Counted from the first letter of the stretch, positions 11,183-55,353 are shown. The stretch: DNA of 64,000 nucleotides from Nitrospirota bacterium (GCA_963699545.1 CAVOUE010000010.1:32001-96000), one strand, 5' to 3'. Notes: generated from the sequence alone by a model not told the origin. Numbers and translations: made by a program.

Positions 11183-12634
11183 ATGGGCGATTACGACTTC
11201 GACATAGGCATTTTGGGAGGCGGGGCGGCCGGATTGACCGTTGCATCGGGAGCTGCGCAACTGGGAGCGAAAACCCTCCTCATCGAAAAGGACAGGAGAC
11301 TGGGAGGCGACTGCCTCCATTTCGGTTGTGTACCGAGCAAGACCCTCATCAGAACAGCCGGGGTTTATCATCTCATGAAGAGGGCCCGGGACTTCGGGCT
11401 TCCTCCCGTGAAGGTCCCGCCCGTGGATTTCAGCGAAGTTGCAAAGAGGATACAGTCCGTGATCAGCATCATCCAGAAACATGATTCGGAGGAACGGTTC
11501 TGCAGGCTGGGGGCAAGAGTGGAATTTGGAGGGGCAGAGTTTGCAGACGAGCATTCCGTCAGACTGAACGGAAAAACCTATTCCGCCAGAAATTGGGTGA
11601 TCGCAACAGGCTCCTCCCCTTTCGTCCCTTCCATCACGGGACTCGACTCAACTCCCTTCATAACAAACAGGGATATCTTTTCTCTGGGCAGCCTCCCCGG
11701 GTCCATGATCATTCTTGGGGGCGGGCCGGTGGCCATCGAGATGGCGCAGGCGTTCTGCAGGCTGGGGACAGCGGTATCAGTGATCCAGCGCGGCAAACAG
11801 ATACTGAACAGAGAAGATAAGGACATGGCAGACCTCGTGATGAACATACTCAACAGGGAGGGGGTGACCTTTTATCTCAATGCTTCCGTTATCAGCACGC
11901 GGGATGCAGGAGATGGGAGAGAGGTGCTCATAAGGACTGCCGAAGACAAGACGCTCACCTTAAAGAGCGAGACCATCCTTGCAGCCATGGGGAGAGAGGC
12001 CAATGTCAACGGACTGGGGCTGAAGGGTATCGGCGTGGCATTTGACAACAGGGGGATAAGAGTTGATGACCGTATGAGAACAACGCATAAGCATATCTAT
12101 GCGGCTGGGGATGTCACCGGCGCGTATCAGTTCACCCATGCGGCCGGATATGAGGGAGGCATTATTGTGAGCAACGCTGTTTTCCATCTGCCCCGGAAGG
12201 CCGACTACACGTTCTTCCCGTGGTGCACCTATACTGATCCCGAACTGGCGAGCATCGGGATGAACGAGCGGATGGCTGAAGATGCCGGGATTCGGTACTC
12301 GGTCTGGACAGAGGAATTCAGGACCAATGACAGAAGCATTGCAGAGGGAGAAGAGACCGGCAGGATCAAGATGCTCCTTGGTGCCCGGGAAAAACCTCTG
12401 GGTATCCAGATCCTGGGACCTCATGCCGGGGAATTGATCAGTGAATGGGTGGCAATCACCAACGGGAAGGTCGGACTCACGACCCTGGCCTCCGCCATCC
12501 ATCCTTACCCCACGCTCGGGGAGATCAACAAAAAAGTGGCCGGGACCTTCTTCGCAAGCAAGATATTTTCTGACAAGGTCAAGAAAGGGCTGAAATTCTT
12601 CTTCCATCTCAAGGGAAGGGCATGCGGCGAATGA
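11183..12634 (+). CDS. Pyridine nucleotide-disulfide oxidoreductase (Lpd/mercuric reductase-like family)
   Basis: GGGAAG FAD motif, GGDCLHFGCVPSK redox disulfide, GDV, HPYPT. Confidence 0.9.
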   Translation: MGDYDFDIGILGGGAAGLTVASGAAQLGAKTLLIEKDRRLGGDCLHFGCVPSKTLIRTAGVYHLMKRARDFGLPPVKVPPVDFSEVAKRIQSVISIIQKHDSEERFCRLGARVEFGGAEFADEHSVRLNGKTYSARNWVIATGSSPFVPSITGLDSTPFITNRDIFSLGSLPGSMIILGGGPVAIEMAQAFCRLGTAVSVIQRGKQILNREDKDMADLVMNILNREGVTFYLNASVISTRDAGDGREVLIRTAEDKTLTLKSETILAAMGREANVNGLGLKGIGVAFDNRGIRVDDRMRTTHKHIYAAGDVTGAYQFTHAAGYEGGIIVSNAVFHLPRKADYTFFPWCTYTDPELASIGMNERMAEDAGIRYSVWTEEFRTNDRSIAEGEETGRIKMLLGAREKPLGIQILGPHAGELISEWVAITNGKVGLTTLASAIHPYPTLGEINKKVAGTFFASKIFSDKVKKGLKFFFHLKGRACGE

Positions 12635-39315: not shown

Positions 39316-39458
39316 TAGTGTAGTGCGTCTAACGCTTCTTTACATTACTTCCGAAGCTGTCATTCCCGTGAAAGCGGGAATCCAGACCGAAAAGACTGGA
39401 TTCCGGGTCAAGCCCGGAATGACAAACAGAGTAAAGGGACTTTTGCCGCAATACACTA
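39316..39458. mobile_element. MITE-like element carrying a REP-like palindrome
   Basis: Imperfect terminal inverted repeats at 39316-39343 and 39431-39458; internal TGTCATTCCCGTGAAAGCGGGAATCCAG...CTGGATTCCGGGTCAAGCCCGGAATGACA. Confidence 0.65.
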
Positions 39459-39483: not shown

Positions 39484-41067
39484 CTATTTTGATTCGATAT
39501 ATCCCAGATGGACCTGAGATTGAAAAATCTCTTTGAAATTTTGGTTCCCTGAGAGGGTTAGATGCTTTACCCTTTTCGCAAGGAGGCAGGCATTCTGAAA
39601 AGCCGATTTGGACAATGCCATCATCACGGCACCAGTTGCTGGAGTGTTGCCCACATTTTGTATCTTCCGTAACTCTGAAGGCGGAAGAAGCCCGGTTGTC
39701 AGAACATCCCTTGGGTTGATTCGGCTTGCAAAGACACCTGAAAAGAAGATTGCGTTGATCTCATCTGCCCTTAGATTGACATGGGCGAGCACGGTGTCCA
39801 GCGCAGCCCTTGTTGCGGCCTTTGCAAGAATGAATTGTTGTATATCATCTTCACTGACCGTCACATCAGGTGAAAGAATTACCTCCCGACCAGATTTGCC
39901 CCGACGCACTAATTTTTGAGGAATTCTCTCAGGAACCACGGCACCAAACTGATCCAGAGCACCGGCCCTCAGAAGTTCCCCAATCAGACTAAAAAGCCCC
40001 GAACCGGTAATACCGACAGCTGACTTGTTCCCGATCACTGAAATTTCAAAGGCCCCTTTAGCGAATCTCACCTTCTCAATAGCTCCTTCAACACCTCTCA
40101 TACCGCAGGAGATGCCCACGCCCTCAAATGCCGGTCCTGCAGCGGTAGAGCAAGCGACAATAGTTTCCTTTGTGACGACAACTACCTCGGCATTTGTGCC
40201 TATGTCTACGAGCAGGTTTGGAGGTTCTGGATTCAGAAGCGAAACAGCCAGAAGTGCAGCTACTGTATCCGAACCAACAAATCCTCCAACAACAGGGGGA
40301 ATGTGAATAGTAGCTCTCCCCAGAGGGCCCTTCTTAAATGGGGAAAAATGGACAGGACTGTCTATGCCCGATTCATAGGGACATCTCCCTAACTTATCAG
40401 GACTCAGCCCCAACATGAGCGTTTCCATCGCAGTATTCATCACCACTACAACGTCAGTTATCCTCTTGCCTTTATCCGCTGTCAGTTTTGCAAGCTTTTC
40501 CATATCTGAAAGAGTCAAATCCATAAAGGTTTTTCTTGCTTCATCCCAATGATGCGAACAATAAGCAAGACGAGTCATCACATCCGCCCCAAAAATTGAT
40601 TGACCATTGGCAATCGTCGCGGAGGCGATAAGTTTCCCTGTAACGGGGTTCAATAAATGCCCAACTATATTCGTAGTACCCAAATCAACCGCCAGGACGA
40701 CGCCCTCGGAGGGACGATCTTGCCATGGATCAACAGGGAAGCTTAAGTCTTCTATTTTCAACTTGTGTTCAGAGGCCGATACCGGTTCAGGGATTTCTAC
40801 GACCATATCGACCTCCGGGTAAAGTCCACAAGCCAGCCTTATTCCTTCATTTATCTCATCGGTAGAAAGGTGGCTACGTTCAAATTCTGACGGGGCGGGA
40901 GCCATGTTAAAGAGACGAACCCTGCACTTCCCGCAAATACCTTGGCCGCCGCAATAAGAGTTCAAACTCATTCCGGCTCTTGTCAGAACCTGGAACAGGC
41001 TTTCTCTATGGGAAATAGGTAATATCGTTCCTCGGGGAAGAACGGTTATTCTTGCGAACCCAGTCAT
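39484..41067 (-). CDS. ASKHA-type reductive activator of corrinoid proteins (RACE/RamA-like) with N-terminal 2Fe-2S domain
   Basis: CGGQGICGKC...RLAC ferredoxin; DLGTT, FGADVMTR, GGFVGSD, DIGTNAE, TAAGPAFEG. Confidence 0.9.
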   Translation of the reverse strand: MTGFARITVLPRGTILPISHRESLFQVLTRAGMSLNSYCGGQGICGKCRVRLFNMAPAPSEFERSHLSTDEINEGIRLACGLYPEVDMVVEIPEPVSASEHKLKIEDLSFPVDPWQDRPSEGVVLAVDLGTTNIVGHLLNPVTGKLIASATIANGQSIFGADVMTRLAYCSHHWDEARKTFMDLTLSDMEKLAKLTADKGKRITDVVVVMNTAMETLMLGLSPDKLGRCPYESGIDSPVHFSPFKKGPLGRATIHIPPVVGGFVGSDTVAALLAVSLLNPEPPNLLVDIGTNAEVVVVTKETIVACSTAAGPAFEGVGISCGMRGVEGAIEKVRFAKGAFEISVIGNKSAVGITGSGLFSLIGELLRAGALDQFGAVVPERIPQKLVRRGKSGREVILSPDVTVSEDDIQQFILAKAATRAALDTVLAHVNLRADEINAIFFSGVFASRINPRDVLTTGLLPPSELRKIQNVGNTPATGAVMMALSKSAFQNACLLAKRVKHLTLSGNQNFKEIFQSQVHLGYIESK

Positions 41068-41948
41068 GCGATCTTAAACAACGGATGGGACAAATCCGGA
41101 CATTTTCCCCTTTCCATCATGGACTGGCCGAGGGCTGCTTCCACCATCGCAACTGCTGGGAAAACCGTGTCGGCGAGGGCCATCGGACCATAAATTACAA
41201 ATTCTCCGCCCCAGGCCACTGTGAGGGCGTTTATAACTGCCGTTGCCGGTTTTTTGAAGTTGTCCCCTATCTTGGCTTTTAGGCCGGACCATGTGCTGAT
41301 TGCATTGTGGGCGGCTGCGCCTGGCAGGTATCCTAATTCCTTCGCTTTGGACATGACCTCCTTTGCTGTCCCCATCGAAGGCAAATCGATTATTCCGGGA
41401 TCTATGAGGAAATCGCTTACCCCTTCCGACTTGAGTTTAGCAATAAGACCATCCTCTTTTGTCATCATTCTTATTTTGCCTTCGGCCGAGAAATCGGCGC
41501 TTTCGACCAGCAGTACCACCGCGGCCTTAACCCCGCACTTCCCGATTGCTTCGAACTCTTCTTTCGTGCTTTCTTGCGAGATGCTGTTGTAGATGACACG
41601 ATTGGAGAGGCCCTTGGCTGCCATGTGGCGAATCCCTTCTATTTTCACGACGCTGCTGGTTCCATCCACCATTATAGGTCCTGCGAAATTTTCCACGACA
41701 AAGTCTAAGTAGGTCTTCATAGCGCTTGGCGTAGATGCGAGCACATCGGCACAGCAGGGGATACCGGTAATTTCCGACCACTTTGATTGCAGATCGATCA
41801 ACTTTCCTGCTTCACTTTTATCGAACTGGCCCGTGAGCGGATCGGTCACTATCTTCTGCCTGTCGTAAAAAATGCTTCCGGCAAGAAGGGCAGGCGTCTC
41901 ACCTAAATCCCCGCCCATATTTATTCCACAAACCTTCCTCACTCCCAT
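41064..41948 (-). CDS. MtrH/CmuB/MtgA-family corrinoid:pterin methyltransferase
   Basis: GSIFY..QKIVTDP..G.FD, IMVDG, IYNSI, AAHNAISTW, IYGP pattern of the MtrH family. Confidence 0.85.
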   Translation of the reverse strand: MGVRKVCGINMGGDLGETPALLAGSIFYDRQKIVTDPLTGQFDKSEAGKLIDLQSKWSEITGIPCCADVLASTPSAMKTYLDFVVENFAGPIMVDGTSSVVKIEGIRHMAAKGLSNRVIYNSISQESTKEEFEAIGKCGVKAAVVLLVESADFSAEGKIRMMTKEDGLIAKLKSEGVSDFLIDPGIIDLPSMGTAKEVMSKAKELGYLPGAAAHNAISTWSGLKAKIGDNFKKPATAVINALTVAWGGEFVIYGPMALADTVFPAVAMVEAALGQSMMERGKCPDLSHPLFKIA

Positions 41949-42047
41949 AATGTTCTCCCTAAATTTTATTTATAACTCAAAATCTCATAAAGCTCAGAGC
42001 CCCCCTGGGTGAAGCACATCTTTTAGATACACTCTAGGATTAACTCC

Positions 42048-42087
42048 TTTAAGGGAAGCTCCTGAATTTGGCGGAGCTTCCCTTAAA
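42048..42087. terminator. Strong intra-operon hairpin
   Basis: TTTAAGGGAAGCTCC ... GGAGCTTCCCTTAAA 15-bp inverted repeat. Confidence 0.7.
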
Positions 42088-42143
42088 CGGTTGTCTTAGC
42101 TGATCTCAGGAATCCAAAAACAGCGGTTACCTTAGTGCTACCA

Positions 42144-43224
42144 TTACATAACCATTTCTACCGGTCTCGGGTAAGACTCCCGGATGAATGATACGGTCAG
42201 ATCATCATTGTAAACGGTGTCCTTAGCGGCTTGAACCATTGCCAGGATATTTGCCTCAGGCGTTCTCGGATTCAGGTCGCAGCCAGACCCCAGGATGAAA
42301 CCCGAGCCGTTTCCTGCCTCTTCGATGACACTCCGGGATTTCCAATAGACCGCTTCCGGAGTCCCGTAAAGCATGTAATCGATGGGATGGACATTACCGG
42401 AAATACAAATCTTCTTACCGACTTTTGCCTTGCACTCCTTCATGCTTATCGGATGGTCAACCTGTAATGCAAGGGCGCCCACGCTTGCCATCTGATCCCA
42501 TATCAGAGAAGTATCAGCACAGGTATGGTTCACTCCAACAACACCTTTGGACCAGGAGAAGTTAAATATCTCCTTAAGATAGGGAGCGGTGAATTCTGCA
42601 TACTGCTCGGGGAGACAGGATCGTGTTCGAAGAGAAAGGCTCAAGGGCAACAATGGCATGTGATCCTGCCGTGATCAACGCTTCCCAATAGGCGAGAGAG
42701 ACGTCTGTGCAGAAGCGAAGCAGTTTGTGCACCCATTCCGGGTCTTCGTAGGTCGCCATGAGGAGTTGCTCGGGGCCGTAAAGTTGACTGGCTGTCGTAA
42801 AAGGGCCGCCCGTTACAGGTACAATGATCTTTGTGTTATCGAGTCGTTTCTTCAGAAGTTCGATTTCCTTGCAAACATAAGGCATCCTTCCGTCCTTTTT
42901 GGGATCGGGCATCTTGAGTTTCTTGATGTCGCTTTTGTTTTTGATGAAGTAATCGACCACTACCGGGGTGTGCTCATAAACCTTCACCTTGGACCCGAGG
43001 CATTCTGCTTCCACAAAGAGGTCAGATCCTGCAACTACCGCGTCATCTTCAAATCTCTCAGCCCCCGCAAGCTTCCCTCCTACCATCTTTTCAGGATTAT
43101 AGAGACACTCCTCGGTGGTGAAACCTGCCACCCTCAATGACCGCGTGATGGAAAGTGGAGTTACCGGTACACGGTCCGGTTTCTCAAGTTTTACTGCTGC
43201 AACTATCCTTTCTAGTGAATTCAT
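42144..43224 (-). CDS. URO-D-fold Zn methyltransferase, MtaA/CmuA family (frameshift near 42610)
   Basis: PDRVPV, VEAECLG, DGRMP, GPFT, HTC and GSGC Zn ligands, ISGNVHP; two ORFs joined at a G-run. Confidence 0.88.
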
Positions 43225-43269
43225 TTTTTTGCCTCCTTCTTATTGAGGAAATATTTGCTTTGCTTCTTA

Positions 43270-43917
43270 TCATGCTGCCAGGCCGATGAGCTTTTTTGCG
43301 GCGTGAACCGCCGTTGGCGCGTCAAAGCCACCGTAAGCGTCGGCCCCGATTTTTGCAGCCACTTTCTCGCTGGTAGCTGGGCCGCCGATAAGTATTTTAG
43401 CCTTGATACCCGCGGCCTTGGCCAGTTTGCAAACCTCTTCCATCTTGTCCAGGCAGATGCTCATAATAAGGGACATACCGATGAGGTCGGCATTCACCTC
43501 TTTTGCCTTGTCGATGAAAGCTTGCGGTTCCACGTCCACTCCAAGGTCGTAGACCTTAAACCCGCCGGCCCTCATCATCATACCGACCAGATTTTTGCCG
43601 ATGTCGTGCAGATCCCCTTTTGGAGTGCCAAGCACCATTGTTGCCTTGTAGTTCCCTTCCTTGCCCGCAAGTTTTTCTTCCACAAGTGCCTGTCCTGCTC
43701 CCAGGGCTTTGGCTGCCATTAGAACGTGAGTAATGAATCTCTCTCGCCTGAGCCACATATTTCCCACCTCTGTGAGACCAGCCGCGAGGCCGCTCGTGAT
43801 AATTTTTTGGGGGTCTACGCCTGCCTGAAGGGCTTCCCTTGTTGCAGCTTCAGTTTCTGGGACAGACATCGAAACAATAGCCTGCCGAATCCTGCCAAGT
43901 GAGTCTTTCTCTGACAT
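43270..43917 (-). CDS. Corrinoid (B12-binding) methyl-carrier protein
   Basis: Cap domain plus GDLHDIGKNLV (DxHxxG), GMSL, IGG. Confidence 0.93.
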   Translation of the reverse strand: MSEKDSLGRIRQAIVSMSVPETEAATREALQAGVDPQKIITSGLAAGLTEVGNMWLRRERFITHVLMAAKALGAGQALVEEKLAGKEGNYKATMVLGTPKGDLHDIGKNLVGMMMRAGGFKVYDLGVDVEPQAFIDKAKEVNADLIGMSLIMSICLDKMEEVCKLAKAAGIKAKILIGGPATSEKVAAKIGADAYGGFDAPTAVHAAKKLIGLAA

Positions 43918-43968
43918 TTTCCTCGTCCTCCTTTTTCCGAATTTTCAGGGTAAGAAATATTCATCCCC

Positions 43969-44063
43969 GATAAGATAATTGTTACCATATATTAATATAT
44001 GTTGTCAAGTGATAATAGTTGTTATAATATGTTTACTTAGAAATAGATATGTGATAAGATAAT
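43969..44063. promoter_or_regulatory. Divergent promoter/operator region
   Basis: Perfect palindrome CATATATTAATATATG (43986-44001); GATAAGATAAT direct repeats (43969, 44053); minus-strand TTGACA at 44003-44008. Confidence 0.65.
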
Positions 44064-44114
44064 CAAATTGAAGGTCGAAGGCAAAATCAGTAAAATAATC
44101 CGGAGGGAAGGAAT

Positions 44115-44867
44115 ATGGAATTCCTAACGATACAGGAAGTTGCTCAAATTCTCAAAACACATACCAACACCGTTTATAAGATGTGCCGTGAAGGTAGTTT
44201 GCCATGTGTCAAAATAGGTAAGGAGTGGCGTATCGACCGGGCCAAATTTGCAAAGTTCATGGAGAGCGGGACCAAACAAAAGATGGAAGACCCGCTTCAC
44301 GGGTTTATTAGTGATGCCCTTAAAGGTGGTCATGTTCTCGGCGTTTTTACTGAGCAAGATGATATTGCTGAGTTTGAACTGGAATTTTTTAAAGCAGCGC
44401 CGAAGGATGGACGGCGGTTTCTTAAAGCGTGCTGGTGGCAGCATCCGGATGATGTCCGACAGTATCTTGCCAGGGGAGATTTCCCGGTGGAGGCGATGGA
44501 AGCTTCCGGGTCATTTGTCATAGCAGATTTAGGAAAGATCTTTTGCAGTTCCGGCCCGGTCAGCGCAGCAGAGGTCTGGATAACCGCCACTGAGGATGCC
44601 TTAAAACATGGTTTGAAGGGTCTAATTGGCTCTGGTTCCCCTCATTTCAACTGTTGCGGCAGCCACAGTGCCTTGTTAGAGTTTGAAGGCGCTTTAGACA
44701 AGGGATTAAAAGGTTTGCCGGTTGCCGGCGTTTGTTCTTACTTTATGGACAATGACGTGCCGGATGCCTTTCCCAGGTTTGTTGACCTCGTGGCGGATCA
44801 CGATAGGTTCTTTGTTAAGACAAAGGATGGCGGAATTTTCGCTAAGAATATAAGCTCATTCTCCTAA
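44115..44867 (+). CDS. DcmR-like regulator: excisionase/MerR-type HTH plus probable MEDS sensor domain
   Basis: LTIQEVAQILK..TVYKM..G.LP..KIGKEWRI HTH; C-terminal GHVLGVF...LLEFE...VCSY...HD fits my recollection of MEDS. Confidence 0.75.
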   Translation: MEFLTIQEVAQILKTHTNTVYKMCREGSLPCVKIGKEWRIDRAKFAKFMESGTKQKMEDPLHGFISDALKGGHVLGVFTEQDDIAEFELEFFKAAPKDGRRFLKACWWQHPDDVRQYLARGDFPVEAMEASGSFVIADLGKIFCSSGPVSAAEVWITATEDALKHGLKGLIGSGSPHFNCCGSHSALLEFEGALDKGLKGLPVAGVCSYFMDNDVPDAFPRFVDLVADHDRFFVKTKDGGIFAKNISSFS

Positions 44868-45080: not shown

Positions 45081-46427
45081 TTATTTTGTCTTTCTCATTT
45101 TTTTCAGCGCCTTTGCTATCTGACCCGTAATACTTTTTGTTCTTAGCTGAACATCTATCTTCCCGATATCTTCCATGACTGTATCTTTCTCGACCGCGAT
45201 CGACGACGATTTCCGCATGGAAAGGACCTGACTGGGATATACACTCCTGTGTCCGGTCATTAAGAAACTGATAATGCAGGAAATCGCAGCATAGGGCCCC
45301 ACGGACGCACCGAAAAGCTCTATGGCCATGATGCTTGCGGAAATAGGTGTATTCGCCGCGCCGGCAAGCACGGCTACCATTCCAAGAGCGGCGAACATGG
45401 CCGGGTCCAGTCCCAGTACGCTCCCAAACATGTTGCCCGATGCGGCCCCGACGAAAAAGATCGGCGTAACAATCCCGCCGCTCCCTCCGAAATTAAGGGT
45501 AATTGACGTGAAAAGCATCTTAAAGAGAAAAGCCAGTTTAGGTGTCTCCCTACCCTGCAGGGCGCCCTGGATAGTGTCTAACCCGAGGCCGAGGTACCGG
45601 CTTGAAAGAAGAAACGAAAAGATCGCAAGCACGGTTCCGCCCGCCACCGCCTTGTACGACATCGCCAGCTTTATCTTCTGGCTCATATCCTTAAAATATG
45701 TAAGCATCTCCACGAACAAGAAGGAACAAAGACCGAAAAACACGCCGCTGAAGCATACCTTGAGAAAAAAGAAACTGCTGAAAACGGGGACGAACTTCAG
45801 CGGCTCATGAAAATAGGTGATTCCCATGAGCGACGAGACGTGAAACCCAACAATGCCCGCAACGAACGAAGGGAGCAGTACGTCATAAAGCAGACCACCT
45901 ACAAAGAGCACCTCAACCCCAAATATTGCTCCGGCAATGGGGGTTCCGAATACGGTTGAAAATCCTGCACTGATGCCGCATATGACCAATCTTCTGCGGT
46001 CTTTATCATCGAACTTCAGCAGGTCGGAAAGTCCCGATGCAAGACCAGCGCCTATCTGAGCGCACGGTCCTTCTTTCCCCGCCGAGCCTCCAAAAGCAAT
46101 GGTGATGATCGTCGCGGCAAGTTTTACGGGAACAACCATCGGATTTATTTTCCCCGCACGTTTGTGCACCGCCTCTATCACCTTCTCTGTCCCGTGTCCT
46201 CCAGCTTCAGGGGCGAGATACTTCACGATAACAACGCTTAATAAAAATGCCACCGGGAGCAACAGATAATAATACTTGTACCCGTTTGTGAAATCAATTC
46301 CCAGTGCAAGCAGCTTGAGGAATACCGCCGTTGATGTCCCTACCACAACGCCCACACAGGCTGCGAGAAAGATCCATTTGCTGATGCTCACGAACAAAAC
46401 GGAGCTTTCGAGAATCTTTTTCCTCAT
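45081..46427 (-). CDS. ClC-family chloride channel/antiporter
   Basis: GHGTE, GGSAGKEGP, FGTPIAGAIF, GGIVTP, NTPI motifs. Confidence 0.92.
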   Translation of the reverse strand: MRKKILESSVLFVSISKWIFLAACVGVVVGTSTAVFLKLLALGIDFTNGYKYYYLLLPVAFLLSVVIVKYLAPEAGGHGTEKVIEAVHKRAGKINPMVVPVKLAATIITIAFGGSAGKEGPCAQIGAGLASGLSDLLKFDDKDRRRLVICGISAGFSTVFGTPIAGAIFGVEVLFVGGLLYDVLLPSFVAGIVGFHVSSLMGITYFHEPLKFVPVFSSFFFLKVCFSGVFFGLCSFLFVEMLTYFKDMSQKIKLAMSYKAVAGGTVLAIFSFLLSSRYLGLGLDTIQGALQGRETPKLAFLFKMLFTSITLNFGGSGGIVTPIFFVGAASGNMFGSVLGLDPAMFAALGMVAVLAGAANTPISASIMAIELFGASVGPYAAISCIISFLMTGHRSVYPSQVLSMRKSSSIAVEKDTVMEDIGKIDVQLRTKSITGQIAKALKKMRKTK

Positions 46428-46624
46428 TACGTTAATCTCCAATGATCTTCGGGATTATGTATTATAATTGTTTCTTCCGCTCTTTGACAGGCCTCTCACC
46501 CGACGGCAAGATGATGATGGGCAACAAAGATATGATGAAAGCGCTGAAGAAGGTGAGGAGAAAATGAACTCGTGTGCCTTCTTGGGTTAAAAGTCTTTGC
46601 TGCGCTTTCCGAATTGTCAGGCAA

Positions 46625-47623
46625 TTACTTTAGAAGATATAAGAGCGCCATATTGGCTATATAAACGACAATGATTCCGATGGAATCCCACGCCAGAAAC
46701 AACCTTTTTTTCTCTGCCCTGTAAGTCAGACCGATAACTGCGACAGAGGTCATGGCAATAGCGGATAAGGCCGATATTACATGACTGGGATTCGTGAAAG
46801 ACAGGATGGGGCCTTTTACGAAAAAGATGTCGTCAATAGCGAGAATGAAGATGTTAAAAATATTACTTCCGAAGAGATTGCCGATTGCAAGGTCTATGGA
46901 AGCCATTCTTACGGCTGCTACAGAAACCACTGCCTCGGGAAGGGATGTGGAAACCGCGATAAATATGTTCGCCACAAACGTCTGTCCAAGCCCCGTCGCC
47001 TCGGCAATGCCTTCACCGACCTTAGGTAAGAATATCGCAGCAATTACGACAATGCCCGCATTGATAACATAATGCAGAATGGCGTCTTTTGTTTTCACGC
47101 TTTCATATCTGAGTTCTTTGGCGATCTCCTTCAGGAAGGTGGCCACCTGTCTCTTCTCATAAAAATAGACTAACCTCATTGCAATGAAGTAATTAATCAC
47201 AAACAGGAAAGTGTAGGCGCCGATCCAGCCCAACGGAGTGGCATATTCCGCAAAAGAGATACTTAAAGCAACGATACTGAGAAGAAGGATTCCGAAGCCT
47301 GCCGATAGGACATGTCCGTGATGGGCCTTTGTGGAAATCGGCACTGGTTTATAGAGAGCATCGAGGATCGCGAGAATAAGCATATTGAATACGCAACTTC
47401 CAAGCACATCGCCGACGGCTATATCCGGCACACCGGCATAAGTGACGGAGCTTACCCCCGTGACGAGTTCCGGCAGGGATGTAACAGAAGCCATGAGCAC
47501 AACACCAATCCATGCTCTTCCCATGCCTGTCTTTTCAGCGATCATATCGCCGTATTTTGAAAGCTTCGTCCCGGAATACACAATCGCCGTTGTACAGATT
47601 AGAAATTCAAGCCAGAGAAGCAT
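46625..47623 (-). CDS. Sodium:calcium antiporter (CaCA family)
   Basis: Two alpha repeats: TSLPE...GDVLGSCVFN and TSLPE...GNLFGSNIFN. Confidence 0.9.
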   Translation of the reverse strand: MLLWLEFLICTTAIVYSGTKLSKYGDMIAEKTGMGRAWIGVVLMASVTSLPELVTGVSSVTYAGVPDIAVGDVLGSCVFNMLILAILDALYKPVPISTKAHHGHVLSAGFGILLLSIVALSISFAEYATPLGWIGAYTFLFVINYFIAMRLVYFYEKRQVATFLKEIAKELRYESVKTKDAILHYVINAGIVVIAAIFLPKVGEGIAEATGLGQTFVANIFIAVSTSLPEAVVSVAAVRMASIDLAIGNLFGSNIFNIFILAIDDIFFVKGPILSFTNPSHVISALSAIAMTSVAVIGLTYRAEKKRLFLAWDSIGIIVVYIANMALLYLLK

Positions 47624-49948: not shown

Positions 49949-52215
49949 ATGAAGATTACGTTTCGCCTTATCGTTTCACTTCTTATTGTGGTAGCTCTGA
50001 CTGCCATTGTTTTTTCGTTTTATCAAGTCAGCGCTGAAAGGCTACGTCTCACATCCGAGTTGGAACGGCGAGCTATCGTCCTGGCAGAGAGTTTACAGGA
50101 ATCTGCTATACCTCTGGTGCAGTCAAATGCACTCCCCAGATTGAATCGCCTTGTCGAGCGATTCGGAAACCGCGAGAGGCTCAAGGGAGTTGCCGTGCTC
50201 GACGGGCAGGGAAATATAATAGTAACAACAGCCGGGCTCAAGTCTCACATACTCCAGCCCTTGCCCCAGGCGGTCACCTCCGTCGCGGAAAGGAGACCAG
50301 TGGACGGCTTCTTAGCCGTCGAGGGAAAGAAAACTTATATTTATGCGCTTCCCTTGTCGGCGGAGGATCAACTTATAGGTTCTCTTGCGCTTTTTTATGA
50401 TGCTTCCTACATTGGCGTGAGGCTTGAAGGCATATGGAAGCATAACCTTTTTCGGTTTTTGACATTATCGGTTCTGATCGCGGTGATTACCCTTTTGGTG
50501 ATAAGGTGGAGCATCACAGGTCCGATTGCAAACTTTGCAGAATGGATGAGGGAATTGCGAATGGGGAAAAGCAAAATCAGCCAACCGGTTCCTTCCGTAA
50601 GGGGAGACATTTTAGCGCCGCTGATTACAGAAGCTGCCCACTTGGCGAAGAGTCTCGCGATTGCACGGGCACGGGCGGAAGAGGAGGCGAGGTTACGTGT
50701 TCAGGCTGAATCACTCTGGACGGCAAACAGGCTGAAGGAGCATATGCGTGTTGAACTCGGAGGCAAGAAACTGTTTTTGATTTCGAACAGGGAACCTTAT
50801 ATGCATGTTAAGGATGGCCGCAATGTCAAGTGCATCACCCCGGCAGGCGGATTAGTCACCGCGCTTGATCCGGTCATGCGGATATGTGACGGCGTCTGGA
50901 TTGCCCATGGAAGTGGAGAGGCGGATCGCGAGGTTGTCGATGCCGGCGACAGATTGCGCGTGCCTCCCGAAGAACCTGCCTATGCCTTGAAGAGGATATG
51001 GCTTACCAAGGAAGAGGAAACGGATACTATTATGGTTTTTCGAATGAGGGACTTTGGCCCTTATGCCATATTACTCACACACGTCCCATTTTCCGGTTGG
51101 AGGATTGGGTTCTATTACCAAAAGGTAAATGAGAAGTTCGCGGAGGCATTGCTGCAAGAGGTCGCCGATGAAGAATCTCCTCTCGTTCTGATCCAGGATT
51201 ATCATCTTGCATTGCTGCCGTTTCTGGTCAAAAAGAAGCGCCCGGATGCAAAGATAGCGCTCTTTTGGCACATCCCGTGGCCCAATCCTGAAGCGTACGG
51301 CATCTGTCCCTGGCATCGGGAGATCCTTATGGGGATGCTGGCGGCTGATATAGTCGGCTTTCACATACAGTTCCATTGCAATAATTTTCTGGATACGGTC
51401 GATAGGTTCCTGGAATCAAAGATCGACTGGGAGCAGTTCTCTAGTGAGCCGCGGCGGGCACACGACGTTGATAAAGCCCTTTCCCATAAGTGTCAGTTTT
51501 GAAGCGCGCTTCGGATAAAGAAATCGCAATCCGTGAGAAGACAAGTTCAAGAGAAAACATACTTAAGGAGATAGATGCACATGCGGACTACCTCGGGGTC
51601 GGCGTCGACCGCATCGATTATACCAAAGGCATCCCCGAGCGATTCAGGGCAATTGAGAGGTTTCTGGAAAAATATCCCGAATTTGTGGGCAGGTTCACAT
51701 TTGTAGAGCTTGGCGCGCCGAGCCGTACGCATATCAAGAAATACAGGGATCTCACAACGGAGGTCGAAGAAATGGTTGACAAGATCAACTGGAGATTTCA
51801 GACAAAGGGATGGAAGCCTATTGTCTTTCTTAAGGCGCACCACAGCCACGAGGAGATAACCCGCTTCTATAAGACAGCCGACATCTGCATGGTGACCTCC
51901 CTGCATGACGGTATGAATCTGGTCGCCAAGGAATTTGTGGTAGCGCGTGATGACGAAGACGGGGTATTGGTTCTCAGTCAATTTGCCGGCGCGTCGCGTG
52001 AACTGAAGGATGCGGTGATTATAAATCCTTATGATATCGAGGATATGGCGGATGCGATACATCTTTCGCTTACAATGGAGCCCTCGGAGCGAACTGAACG
52101 GATGCAGAGGATGCGGGCTGTGGTCAAAGAGCATAATATCTATCGCTGGGCTGGAAATCTGATCACGTCATTGGCACGCCTGAGACCTGTGGGAATGCAG
52201 AATGGGAGAACTTAG
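49949..52215 (+). CDS. otsA: Trehalose-6-phosphate synthase with N-terminal TM-sensor-TM-HAMP-like region (frameshifts near 51020, 51105, 51445)
   Basis: SNREPY, AGGLVTAL, QDYHL, FWHIPWP, GVDRIDYTKGI, DGMNLVAKE, LSQFAGA; two TM helices in the first 190 aa or so. Confidence 0.88.
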
Positions 52216-53018
52216 TAAGATCGCGCAGCCGCGATATCTTTTCGGGGATCTAAATGAAACCCCTTTTTAAAGAAACTCGCGCGCGATCGCACGGTTGCAT
52301 TGTTTCTTGATTTTGACGGCACATTAGTTCCCATTCGGCAAGACCCTGCAGAATGTTTCCTGTCTGAAAAGATAAAAAAACAGTTGCGCTCGCTGGCAGA
52401 CTCTGAACGCATCCGTCTGACGATTATGAGCGGGAGGTCTTTGTCCGACGTTAGGAAGAGGGTCGGTATACGTAAGATTTATTACGGCGGCAATCATGGA
52501 TTGGACATCACCGGCCCGAGTGCGAGATATACACACGCAAAAGCTTTATCTGCCAAACCTCTTATGAGGCATGTAAAGCATCTGCTCAAACGTGAGATAG
52601 CGGGTATTAAGGGCGCGTGGCTCGAAGATAAGAAATTTACGGTGAGCCTTCACTTCCGCACAGTGAAGAAAGGACATGTGCAATTACTTAAGAAATGTTT
52701 TTGTAGAGTTGCAAGTGAATTCCTGGAGGACAGATCACTGGGCGTAATCAAGGGAAAAAAGTCCTTGAACTGACGCCTGATTCAACGTGGAACAAGGGCA
52801 GTGCGGTCCTCTGGATTTTACGGCACTTCAAAGGTAAGTGGTTGCCCATCTATGTGGGTGACGACACAACCGACGAGGCGGCGTTTACGGCCCTTAAAGA
52901 AGGAGGCATTACTATACGGGTCGGAAAAGCGAAGAGTACCGGTGCGAAACACTATGTCAAAGGCTATTGGCAGATTCCGCAATTATTGGAACAAATTCAG
53001 GAGTACATCTCTGTATAG
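52202..53018 (+). CDS. otsB: Trehalose-6-phosphate phosphatase (frameshifts near 52260 and 52760)
   Basis: FLDFDGTL, SGR, GNHG, then WNKG, YVGDDTTDE in the shifted frame. Confidence 0.85.
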
Positions 53019-54812: not shown

Positions 54813-55353
54813 CTAAAGCCAGTACTCAGGATATCTTCTGTTCTTCGAGAGGTTGTTCACCAGGAGAGCGACGATCAGAAGAACGAGGGCGCCGAGGCCG
54901 GCGGGGATAAAGGCATACAGGAAACCAAGGCTGTGAATTTTCTCCCCACCGATCACCGCGATCAATGCCGTTGCACCACCTGGTGGATGGAGCGTCTTCG
55001 TGATGAGCATCAGCCCAATGGCAAAGGCTACGCTCAGGGCCGCCGCGATCCAAAGGGTACCACCAAACAGTTGAAAGCACGCGACTCCGGTAAGACCCGA
55101 TATCACGTGGCCCCCTATCAGGTTGCGGGGCTGGGCAAGCGGGCTTTTGATAGCGGCGTAGACCAGTACGGCAGACGCTCCAAAAGAACCTATTAGCAAC
55201 GTCGAATCCGCAGGTTCAAAATAGTTCACTGACATATAACCACATATGCCGATTCCCATTGCAGAGCCGAGCCACGACCAAAGCACCTCTGTGAAACCGA
55301 CCGCCCGGGGGGCTCTTGGCGCCGCCCTTCATCTTTGCGATGTAATCCTTCAT
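54813..55353 (-). CDS. HPP-family membrane protein (frameshift near the 5' end)
   Basis: GSFGASAVL, SPLAQPRN, HPPGGA. Confidence 0.9.

Follow-up and report, generated by a model that had tools for sequence, protein, structure and literature searches.

A candidate Cmu-type corrinoid methyl-transfer module, with CmuA-like functions split over two genes, in a Nitrospirota bacterium

Ozone-destroying halogen of natural origin is carried mainly by methyl chloride and methyl bromide. To our knowledge, the anoxic sinks of methyl halides are poorly explained by enzymes, the only systems we are aware of being Mec, for dichloromethane, and, since 2026, Cdm, from an acetogen; we likewise know of no enzymes for the use of methanethiol or dimethyl sulfide by sulfate reducers. 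In aerobic serine-cycle methylotrophs such as Methylorubrum extorquens CM4, chloromethane is split by the Cmu system (cmu genes from pJM50 and pJM105), in which CmuA (617 amino acids, aa) carries a methyltransferase domain fused to a corrinoid domain. The mec cassette, in the available parts of its descriptions, has ten genes, specifying a PocR kinase, a response regulator, MecB, three enzymes of the uroporphyrinogen decarboxylase type (URO-D), the MtrH-type MecF, MecG, the RACo-type MecH and an antiporter; the marine order is BCFGHE, and dcmR homologues lie alongside twice (10.1101/2021.08.30.458270, PMC9768040). CdmBCA of Acetobacterium dehalogenans comprises a zinc-free CdmB with the UroD fold (429 aa) and a pterin-binding CdmA, and the accessible sections of that report assign MtoB, OdmB, MtvB and CdmB to the UroD superfamily, place CmuA, MecE and MecC as early branches within it and give CdmB and MtoB an identity of 31% (PMC13222342). 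The window analysed here is a 64,000-nt stretch from a Nitrospirota bacterium (GCA_963699545.1, CAVOUE010000010.1:32001-96000). It carries a five-gene cassette (nt 39484–44867) that is best explained as a self-contained, horizontally spread Cmu-type corrinoid methyl-transfer module, in which the functions of CmuA are split over two genes. No paper on the cassette was found in the open-access literature searched, supplements not covered.

The four operon genes lie on the minus strand and are transcribed in the order corrinoid protein, URO-D methyltransferase, MtrH-family methyltransferase and RACo activase, with the regulator gene diverging from them on the plus strand. All five assignments were verified with Pfam and NCBIfam, and the preliminary description of this DNA, which had reported four co-oriented genes and a divergent helix-turn-helix (HTH) sensor regulator, was right for each gene and its position. 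The corrinoid (B12) carrier (nt 43270–43917, minus strand; Pfam B12-binding 81.9 bits, B12-binding_2 52.7 bits) has a cap domain, and its translation shows D-L-H-D-I-G, the D-x-H-x-x-G base-off/His-on motif. It is followed by the zinc-type URO-D methyltransferase of the MtaA/CmuA family (hereafter MT; nt 42144–43224, minus strand; Pfam and NCBIfam), which lies in two frames, and then, after a spacer of 195 bases (nt 41949–42143), by the MtrH-family methylcorrinoid:pterin methyltransferase (MT2; nt 41064–41948, minus strand; Pfam MtrH 214.2 bits), for which tetrahydrofolate (THF) is the probable pterin. The start of the next gene shares four bases with the MtrH stop. It encodes a RACo-type ATP-dependent reductive activase of corrinoid proteins (nt 39484–41067, minus strand) with an N-terminal 2Fe-2S ferredoxin domain and ASKHA domains (Pfam RACo_C_ter 215.7 bits, Raco_middle 104.2, Fer2 26.1), which scores 298 bits against NCBIfam AcsV, under the cut-off of 800. 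The divergent gene (nt 44115–44867, plus strand; Pfam) specifies a one-component regulator with an N-terminal HTH_17 (excisionase-type) domain and a C-terminal MEDS sensor domain.

The relationship to CmuA is carried by the MT. A word-based search returned 35 clusters at 46–90% identity, all of 343–366 aa and all annotated only as 'uroporphyrinogen decarboxylase family', the next identity being 38%. When 1.84 billion representatives were searched exhaustively with a profile, the family appeared as one 50%-identity cluster (622 bits), and the next matches reached at most 323 bits. Its zinc motif is NHTCAD...GSGCDL, with H233, C235 and C315 invariant in 34 orthologues. Of the stand-alone proteins, those of the two nearest clusters, P0199 and P0200, also show the greatest similarity to CmuA (32–35% identity), and a fused protein of 632 aa, P0248, is 60% identical to CmuA and falls on the CmuA branch. 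A 47-row tree, for which every third of P0036–P0110 was taken, places the N-terminal domain of CmuA as sister to the family, with support in the Shimodaira–Hasegawa-like approximate likelihood ratio test (SH-aLRT) of 95 under LG+G4 and 97 under LG+C20 with posterior mean site frequencies (PMSF). The 53-row trees drew on the exhaustive search (33 of 150 listed representatives plus fused forms) and join the family, P0201 and the group of P0199/P0360, P0200 and CmuA/P0248 in one clade (SH-aLRT 98 and 99). Nine positions (R28, K51, A65, G66, L69, F70, L194, W242 and D316) are kept in the family and on the CmuA side and are rare in 47 other representatives; read from alignments, CmuA has all nine of these residues and MtaA (PDB 4ay7) one. 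Judged by the secondary structure of the model, the catalytic face of the triosephosphate isomerase (TIM) barrel, formed by strand ends and the loops after them, contains seven of the nine.

Profile and fold comparisons give a similar picture. The orthologue P0001 matched CmuA with 147 bits (phmmer), Methanosarcina MtaA (4ay7) with 106 and CdmB with 23. Against the NCBIfam MtaA/CmuA subfamily the orthologues are borderline, at 221–264 bits around a cut-off of 235.4, and they fall short of MtaA_Meth (164–187 bits, cut-off 400) and MtbA (143–161 bits, cut-off 600). An AlphaFold2 model of the 90% orthologue (mean predicted local distance difference test score 93.3) has MtaA (4ay7/4ay8) as its best fold match, with a template modelling (TM) score of 0.85–0.90 at 28% identity, followed by UroD. 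When metagenomes were scanned with the neighbouring clade, two of the 80 loci kept were at least 46% identical. One locus (L015:26-2621) has a P0199-type MT followed by a corrinoid protein and MtrH, an unfused Cmu-like unit, which suggests that the whole CmuA-side clade works with the same partners. These comparisons support the MT family as a sister lineage of the CmuA-containing clade, not as an orthologue of CmuA, and on present sequences the MT counts as the free-standing enzyme closest to CmuA, the one chloromethane-splitting enzyme that has been studied well. The earlier proposal of a split CmuA/CmuB module thus finds support as a statement of homology, because the family is a single 50% cluster, is sister to CmuA in four trees, has nine of the nine residues and is partnered by an MtrH-type protein.

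Other features shared with Cmu are the zinc motif, the D-x-H-x-x-G carrier, the MtrH family of MT2 and the presumed THF end. The corrinoid protein is about as far from the C-terminal domain of CmuA (37% identity) as from a paralogue in the same genome (35%). In contrast to the fused CmuA, MT and corrinoid protein are separate here, all 34 aligned orthologues having the free-standing length. The cassette lacks cmuC and has its own RACo activase and HTH_17-MEDS regulator; its hosts are anaerobic sulfate reducers with Wood–Ljungdahl enzymes, whereas those of Cmu are the aerobic methylotrophs mentioned above. The likening of the MtrH protein to CmuB did not hold: identity to CmuB is 31.5% (122 bits), and the better matches in the PDB are 8z9u_B (185 bits) and Desulfitobacterium hafniense MtgA (6sj8; 175 bits over 289 residues), with archaeal MtrH (9qtp) at 122 bits. 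In NCBIfam it scores 259 bits against the PRK00979 subfamily (cut-off 287) and 204 bits against MtgA. These values point to a bacterial relative of MtrH of the THF type and not to an orthologue of CmuB. THF as the acceptor finds support in MtgA, which ranks with 8z9u_B as the closest relative of solved structure; MtgA itself works with an MttB-type glycine betaine methyltransferase, and no MttB gene was found in the cassette genome.

With the mec cassettes of Dehalobacterium, Ca. Dichloromethanomonas and Ca. Formimonas, as given in the parts of the mec accounts available, the locus has in common a corrinoid protein, an MtaA/CmuA-family MT, an MtrH-family methyltransferase and a RACo protein in one cluster. 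The architecture differs, contrary to the earlier likening of the two. There is one URO-D enzyme where mec has three, and no kinase/receiver pair, MecG-like gene or antiporter (MecJ) was found in the conserved unit of the window and 11 related loci. The order, too, is corrinoid protein–MT–[CobW-x]–MtrH–RACo, as against BCFGHE in the marine versions. Among the 30 matches listed in a search with the neighbouring cluster P0200, none was named from a dichloromethane degrader. Cdm, in the accessible sections of its report, is likewise an anaerobic three-part corrinoid route with a UroD-fold substrate-side methyltransferase (MT1), leading from methyl halide to THF. CdmB is only marginally similar to the MT, however, CdmA is of the MeTr/MtqA type whereas MT2 here is of the MtrH family, and no regulator of Cdm is known to us.

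The cassette recurs in other genomes. With the orthologue alignment as query, a pattern-limited search through 185,579 species, each represented by one genome, yielded at least 12 related loci (L001–L012). By their titles the host genomes belong to Nitrospirota, Thermodesulfobacteriota/deltaproteobacteria, Nitrospinota, Thermoleophilia and Anaerolineae. The order regulator–corrinoid protein–MT–MtrH–RACo is kept in 11 of the 12, which is more than chance would give, the twelfth being a contig of only 3.1 kb that stops after the CobW gene; RACo follows MtrH in 10 (L009 is cut and L011 too short). Flanking genes vary among the loci, and no transporter is conserved in the cassette across them, which would fit a membrane-permeant substrate. 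Across phyla the MT is 73–76% identical, compared with 57–59% for aspartyl-tRNA synthetase (AspRS), which indicates that the module moves as a unit and has spread horizontally. At the site equivalent to the spacer between MT and MtrH, 10 of the 12 loci (L001–L006, L008, L009, L011 and L012) carry genes for a CobW/HypB/UreG-type GTPase and a protein of about 115–120 aa (e.g. L004:11072-11671 and 11668-12036), the latter without a Pfam or NCBIfam family. Together the two might insert the metal into the zinc enzyme. Only the window, L007 and L010 are without them and have a short spacer in their place. Zinc transporters adjoin the cassette in L006 (ZnuABC) and L010 (ZIP).

Both domains of the regulator score above their Pfam cut-offs (HTH_17, 59.5 bits against 27; MEDS, 47.7 bits against 29.8), and the gene is the only MEDS gene in the genome. 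It is divergent from the operon in nine loci and co-directional at the operon end in L010. Related HTH_17-MEDS proteins form 88 clusters, named 'excisionase family' or 'MEDS domain-containing', and the name DcmR occurs in none of the 88. A search of a plasmid collection with the regulator gave matches to the HTH domain only (12 records, none covering 80% of the query). In two genomes that also carry this cassette, paralogous regulators stand beside other URO-D cassettes, so this type appears to be a general partner of corrinoid methyltransferases and not a marker of chlorinated-methane use. Of the DcmR-like regulator in the preliminary description, therefore, the HTH plus MEDS architecture stood and the specific link to DcmR is weakened. 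One such paralogue (L102:8527-9318, Nitrospinota) lies beside a URO-D cassette and genes for CbbQ/NorQ-type AAA, VWA and DUF2284 proteins; another (L104:8910-9674, Thermoleophilia) lies between MttB-type and URO-D/MtrH-type systems, the latter with corrinoid protein, URO-D MT and MtrH; and a third MEDS gene, without an HTH domain, adjoins a SpoIIE phosphatase.

The 197 bases between regulator and operon (nt 43918–44114) form an AT-rich divergent control region. A palindrome of 15+15 nt is found at nt 43979–44008, its right arm reading TTGACAACATAT on the operon strand and carrying a TTGACA −35-like box for the operon (minus strand, about nt 43996–44009), with repeated TAACA/TTAACA half-sites around the palindrome. 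By eye, a box CTTGACAAC(A/T)TAT and TAACA repeats can be seen upstream of the corrinoid gene in most of nine related loci. The region probably holds the shared promoter and a putative operator of the MEDS regulator.

The host genome (3.04 Mb, 13 contigs, 87% complete) encodes an AspRS with 80, 79 and 76% identity to those of Nitrospirae bacterium, Thermodesulfovibrionales bacterium and Candidatus Sulfobium sp. genomes, and with 59% and 57% identity to those of a Nitrospinota and a deltaproteobacterial genome. DsrA (530 bits, above cut-off), acetyl-CoA synthase and three methylenetetrahydrofolate reductases (MTHFR) were found, and with MTHFR, acetyl-CoA synthase and DsrAB methyl-THF can be oxidised. 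At least four further URO-D/corrinoid/MtrH/RACo clusters are present (C3:870001-877290, C3:823143-844612, C1:23949-31273 and C9:6180-14285). From these genes the host is a sulfate- or sulfite-reducing member of the Nitrospirota with Wood–Ljungdahl enzymes and a large URO-D methyltransferase set. MtaB and MttB were both absent from the searched genome (87% complete), and this elimination supports the earlier suggestion that the URO-D enzyme is probably MT1. Several of the further clusters have split genes, and CobW-like GTPase genes adjoin three of them. Two of the MTHFR genes lie at C9:15133-16891. A second DsrA/DsrB-like pair (region C4:38439-40554 and C4:41005-42087; 316 bits, under the dsrA cut-off) adjoins a URO-D family methyltransferase gene.

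The proposed mechanism would have five steps. The RACo activase would reduce the corrinoid from Co(II) to Co(I), using ATP and its own 2Fe-2S cluster. The zinc URO-D MT would then present a small, uncharged CH3-X with an anionic leaving group to Co(I), giving CH3-Co(III) and X-, and the MtrH-family enzyme would hand the methyl group to THF. Methyl-THF would be oxidised via MTHFR and the Wood–Ljungdahl enzymes, coupled to the reduction of sulfate or sulfite, and the HTH_17-MEDS protein would sense the substrate or a product and control the divergent promoter. We infer the direction of transfer, THF as the acceptor, the identity of the substrate and the target of the regulator. In its generic form, in which X may be halide or sulfide and THF receives the methyl group of CH3-X, the scheme is somewhat more probable than its negation. 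As CH3-X we tentatively favour a methyl halide (CH3Cl, CH3Br or CH3I). It is suggested by the sister relation to CmuA, by the active-site signature with its two basic residues and tryptophan, and by the lack of a conserved transporter.

Several observations weigh against a methyl halide or against so close a tie to CmuA. The MT is 29% identical to CmuA, whose stem is long (0.85–1.8 changes per site), and the trees are all quick searches without bootstrap that contain no MtaA, MtbA, MtsA, Mto or Mec sequences. MT2 is nearer to MtgA than to CmuB. The zinc ligands are invariant and a CobW-type metallochaperone occurs in 10 of the 12 loci, as against the zinc-free CdmB, so a thiolate or alkoxide leaving group fits at least as well as a halide. 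HTH_17-MEDS paralogues adjoin other URO-D cassettes in both of the further cases seen, only 3 of 11 loci (L004, L005 and L008) have an HPP membrane gene after RACo, and none of the 12 loci carries the ClC channel gene that adjoins the regulator gene in the window. Superfamily relatives at 31% identity, moreover, differ in substrate, CdmB acting on haloalkanes and MtoB on methoxy-aromatics according to the accessible part of the report (PMC13222342).

If methyl halides are indeed the substrate, the cassette would join Mec and Cdm as a third way of using halomethanes without oxygen. In sediments, groundwater and wet soils it would then be a biological sink of CH3Cl and CH3Br that has not been accounted for. 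We advance, with some doubt, the possibility that a mobile, MEDS-regulated, split CmuA-like system enables sulfate-reducing Nitrospirota and Desulfobacterota, as well as Nitrospinota, Thermoleophilia and Anaerolineae, to oxidise methyl halides anoxically. For either methyl halides or methyl sulfides, the cassette is a compact candidate of 5–7 genes for anoxic consumption in lineages that dominate sulfidic sediments. The MT could serve as a marker gene in metagenomes, and the module is small enough for direct expression and assay.

The same machinery, running in the same direction, might act on methylated sulfur (methanethiol, dimethyl sulfide or a methylthio-acid), with zinc binding the sulfur as in methanogen MtsA and the methyl group passing to THF. 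MtsA is an MtaA homologue that acts on dimethyl sulfide, and bisulfide serves as methyl acceptor for a CmuA-type enzyme from an aerobic organism that uses chloromethane. The invariant H-x-C...C zinc site, the frequent CobW-like GTPase and the neighbouring zinc transporters would all suit such a substrate; the hosts reduce sulfate or sulfite or live anaerobically in sediments, and neutral volatiles need no transporter. Nevertheless, the family groups with CmuA and not with the other 35–47 sampled representatives (no MtsA being among the sequences compared), and its scores against the methanogen MT2 equivalogs MtaA and MtbA are far under their cut-offs. Methylated sulfur is thus an unlikely substrate; were it the true one, the cassette would be the missing methyl-sulfide route of sulfate reducers.

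Flow in the reverse direction, with MtrH loading the corrinoid from methyl-THF and the zinc enzyme methylating a thiol or anion (which could serve to volatilise or detoxify sulfide or halide, or make up a soluble methyl-pterin:thiol transferase), appears distinctly improbable. MtaA-family zinc enzymes are typically thiol methylases, and corrinoid methyl transfers of this kind are reversible. The fold match to MtaA would agree with this, as would a host that makes methyl-THF by the Wood–Ljungdahl pathway. However, the operon is accessory, has spread horizontally, is under sensor control and includes an activase, all of which looks catabolic; CmuA, the nearest characterised relative, runs from CH3-X to cobalt, and no acceptor-forming genes are conserved nearby.

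The preliminary description had also stated that no O-demethylase MT1 is present. At the level of families this fails, because MtoB, OdmB and MtvB belong to the UroD superfamily and MtoA is MtrH-like (PMC8630106, available in part). In the accessible parts of the descriptions, the mtoABCD set of Methermicoccus shengliensis and Archaeoglobus fulgidus and the bacterial O-demethylases consist of the same four components at family level: a UroD-superfamily MT1, a corrinoid protein, an MtrH-like MT2 and a RACo protein (PMC8630106, PMC13222342). The cassette might then be an Mto/Odm-type O-demethylase, or another methyl-ether or methanol system, whose URO-D enzyme demethylates methoxylated aromatics or some other O-methyl compound. 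The further URO-D clusters of the genome would be in keeping with this, as would a relative of the regulator, at 45% identity, in Desulfomonile tiedjei, a species that O-demethylates methoxybenzoates. On the other side, the MT is remote from the CdmB/MtoB branch, as judged via CdmB (PDB 9rui), whose match of 23 bits (E 3.5e-4) covers 118 residues (P0001 residues 195–312) and still counts against placement in the O-demethylase clade. The MT has an MtaA/CmuA-type zinc site and the active-site signature common to CmuA, and no aromatic-acid transporter is conserved among the loci. An O-demethylase is therefore very improbable.

The MT gene is interrupted by a frame break at ILSP|EQY within a run of four G (nt 42609–42612, plus-strand numbering). 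Its two pieces cover nt 42574–43224 (147 bits, profile positions 3–216) and nt 42144–42659 (97 bits, positions 214–345) (Pfam), and both are 84–88% identical to an intact orthologue of 359 aa, without further damage. In all four of the best-matching related metagenome runs, from four studies and with one contig each, the contig crossing the site lacks one base at nt 42609; these contigs are 92–98% like the window. At most 26% of the sampled words of the stretch occur in any one public run, so that a related and not an identical strain was read, and the 24 runs listed include none from RNA. Other split genes in the assembly are three URO-D paralogues, a RACo gene and those for acetyl-CoA synthase and trehalose-phosphate synthase. 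The last of these (GT20 family) lies in the window in two frames (nt 49949–51502 and 51490–52215, plus strand), and the trehalose phosphatase gene after it (nt 52300–52773, plus strand) covers only the first 155 of 235 profile positions; the breaks at nt 49949–52773 are further signs of indel errors in the assembly. With so many other genes split, the extra base is very probably an assembly error. That the gene is truly frameshifted in the source genome and the cassette a decaying remnant seems very doubtful: the assembly as given carries the extra base and the strain itself was not re-read, but the base is missing in every related run, the halves are otherwise undamaged, the break sits in a homopolymer, and acetyl-CoA synthase, trehalose-phosphate synthase and other genes are split as well. 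So far as sequence comparison reaches, the cassette can still be described as an anaerobic Cmu relative in split form that brings its own activase and sensor.

Downstream of the activase gene, a pattern scan detected a terminator-like hairpin with a T-rich tail (nt 39400–39420, minus strand; eight pairs, five of them G-C). It is the probable end of the operon, on weak evidence, since the scan found 10 such sites where 6.9 were expected. The cassette has a G+C content of 48.5%, the genome one of 52.2 ± 2.7% on average, and the right flank, at 47.3%, lies below both. The earlier statement that the cassette is AT-richer than its flanks is thus correct relative to the genome and incorrect for the right flank, and the AT-richness is unremarkable because 8.9% of genome windows of equal length have the same or a lower value. 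AT-richness was rejected as a weak sign of recent transfer: the G+C content is ordinary, the neighbours are housekeeping and trehalose genes, no mobility gene is nearby, and a tRNA scan of the window from 25 to 60 kb found none. On the regulator side, a gene for a ClC chloride channel/antiporter (nt 45081–46442, minus strand) adjoins the regulator gene and is convergent with it. As a link to halide it was rejected, being outside the operon as well as absent from the related loci. Beyond it lies a Na/Ca exchanger gene (nt 46625–47623, minus strand), which is absent from all 12 related loci. An HPP-family gene (nt 54813–55286, minus strand), homologous to those of L004, L005 and L008, is found in the window 10 kb from the cassette, where it adjoins a CBS-domain gene and a molybdopterin oxidoreductase gene.

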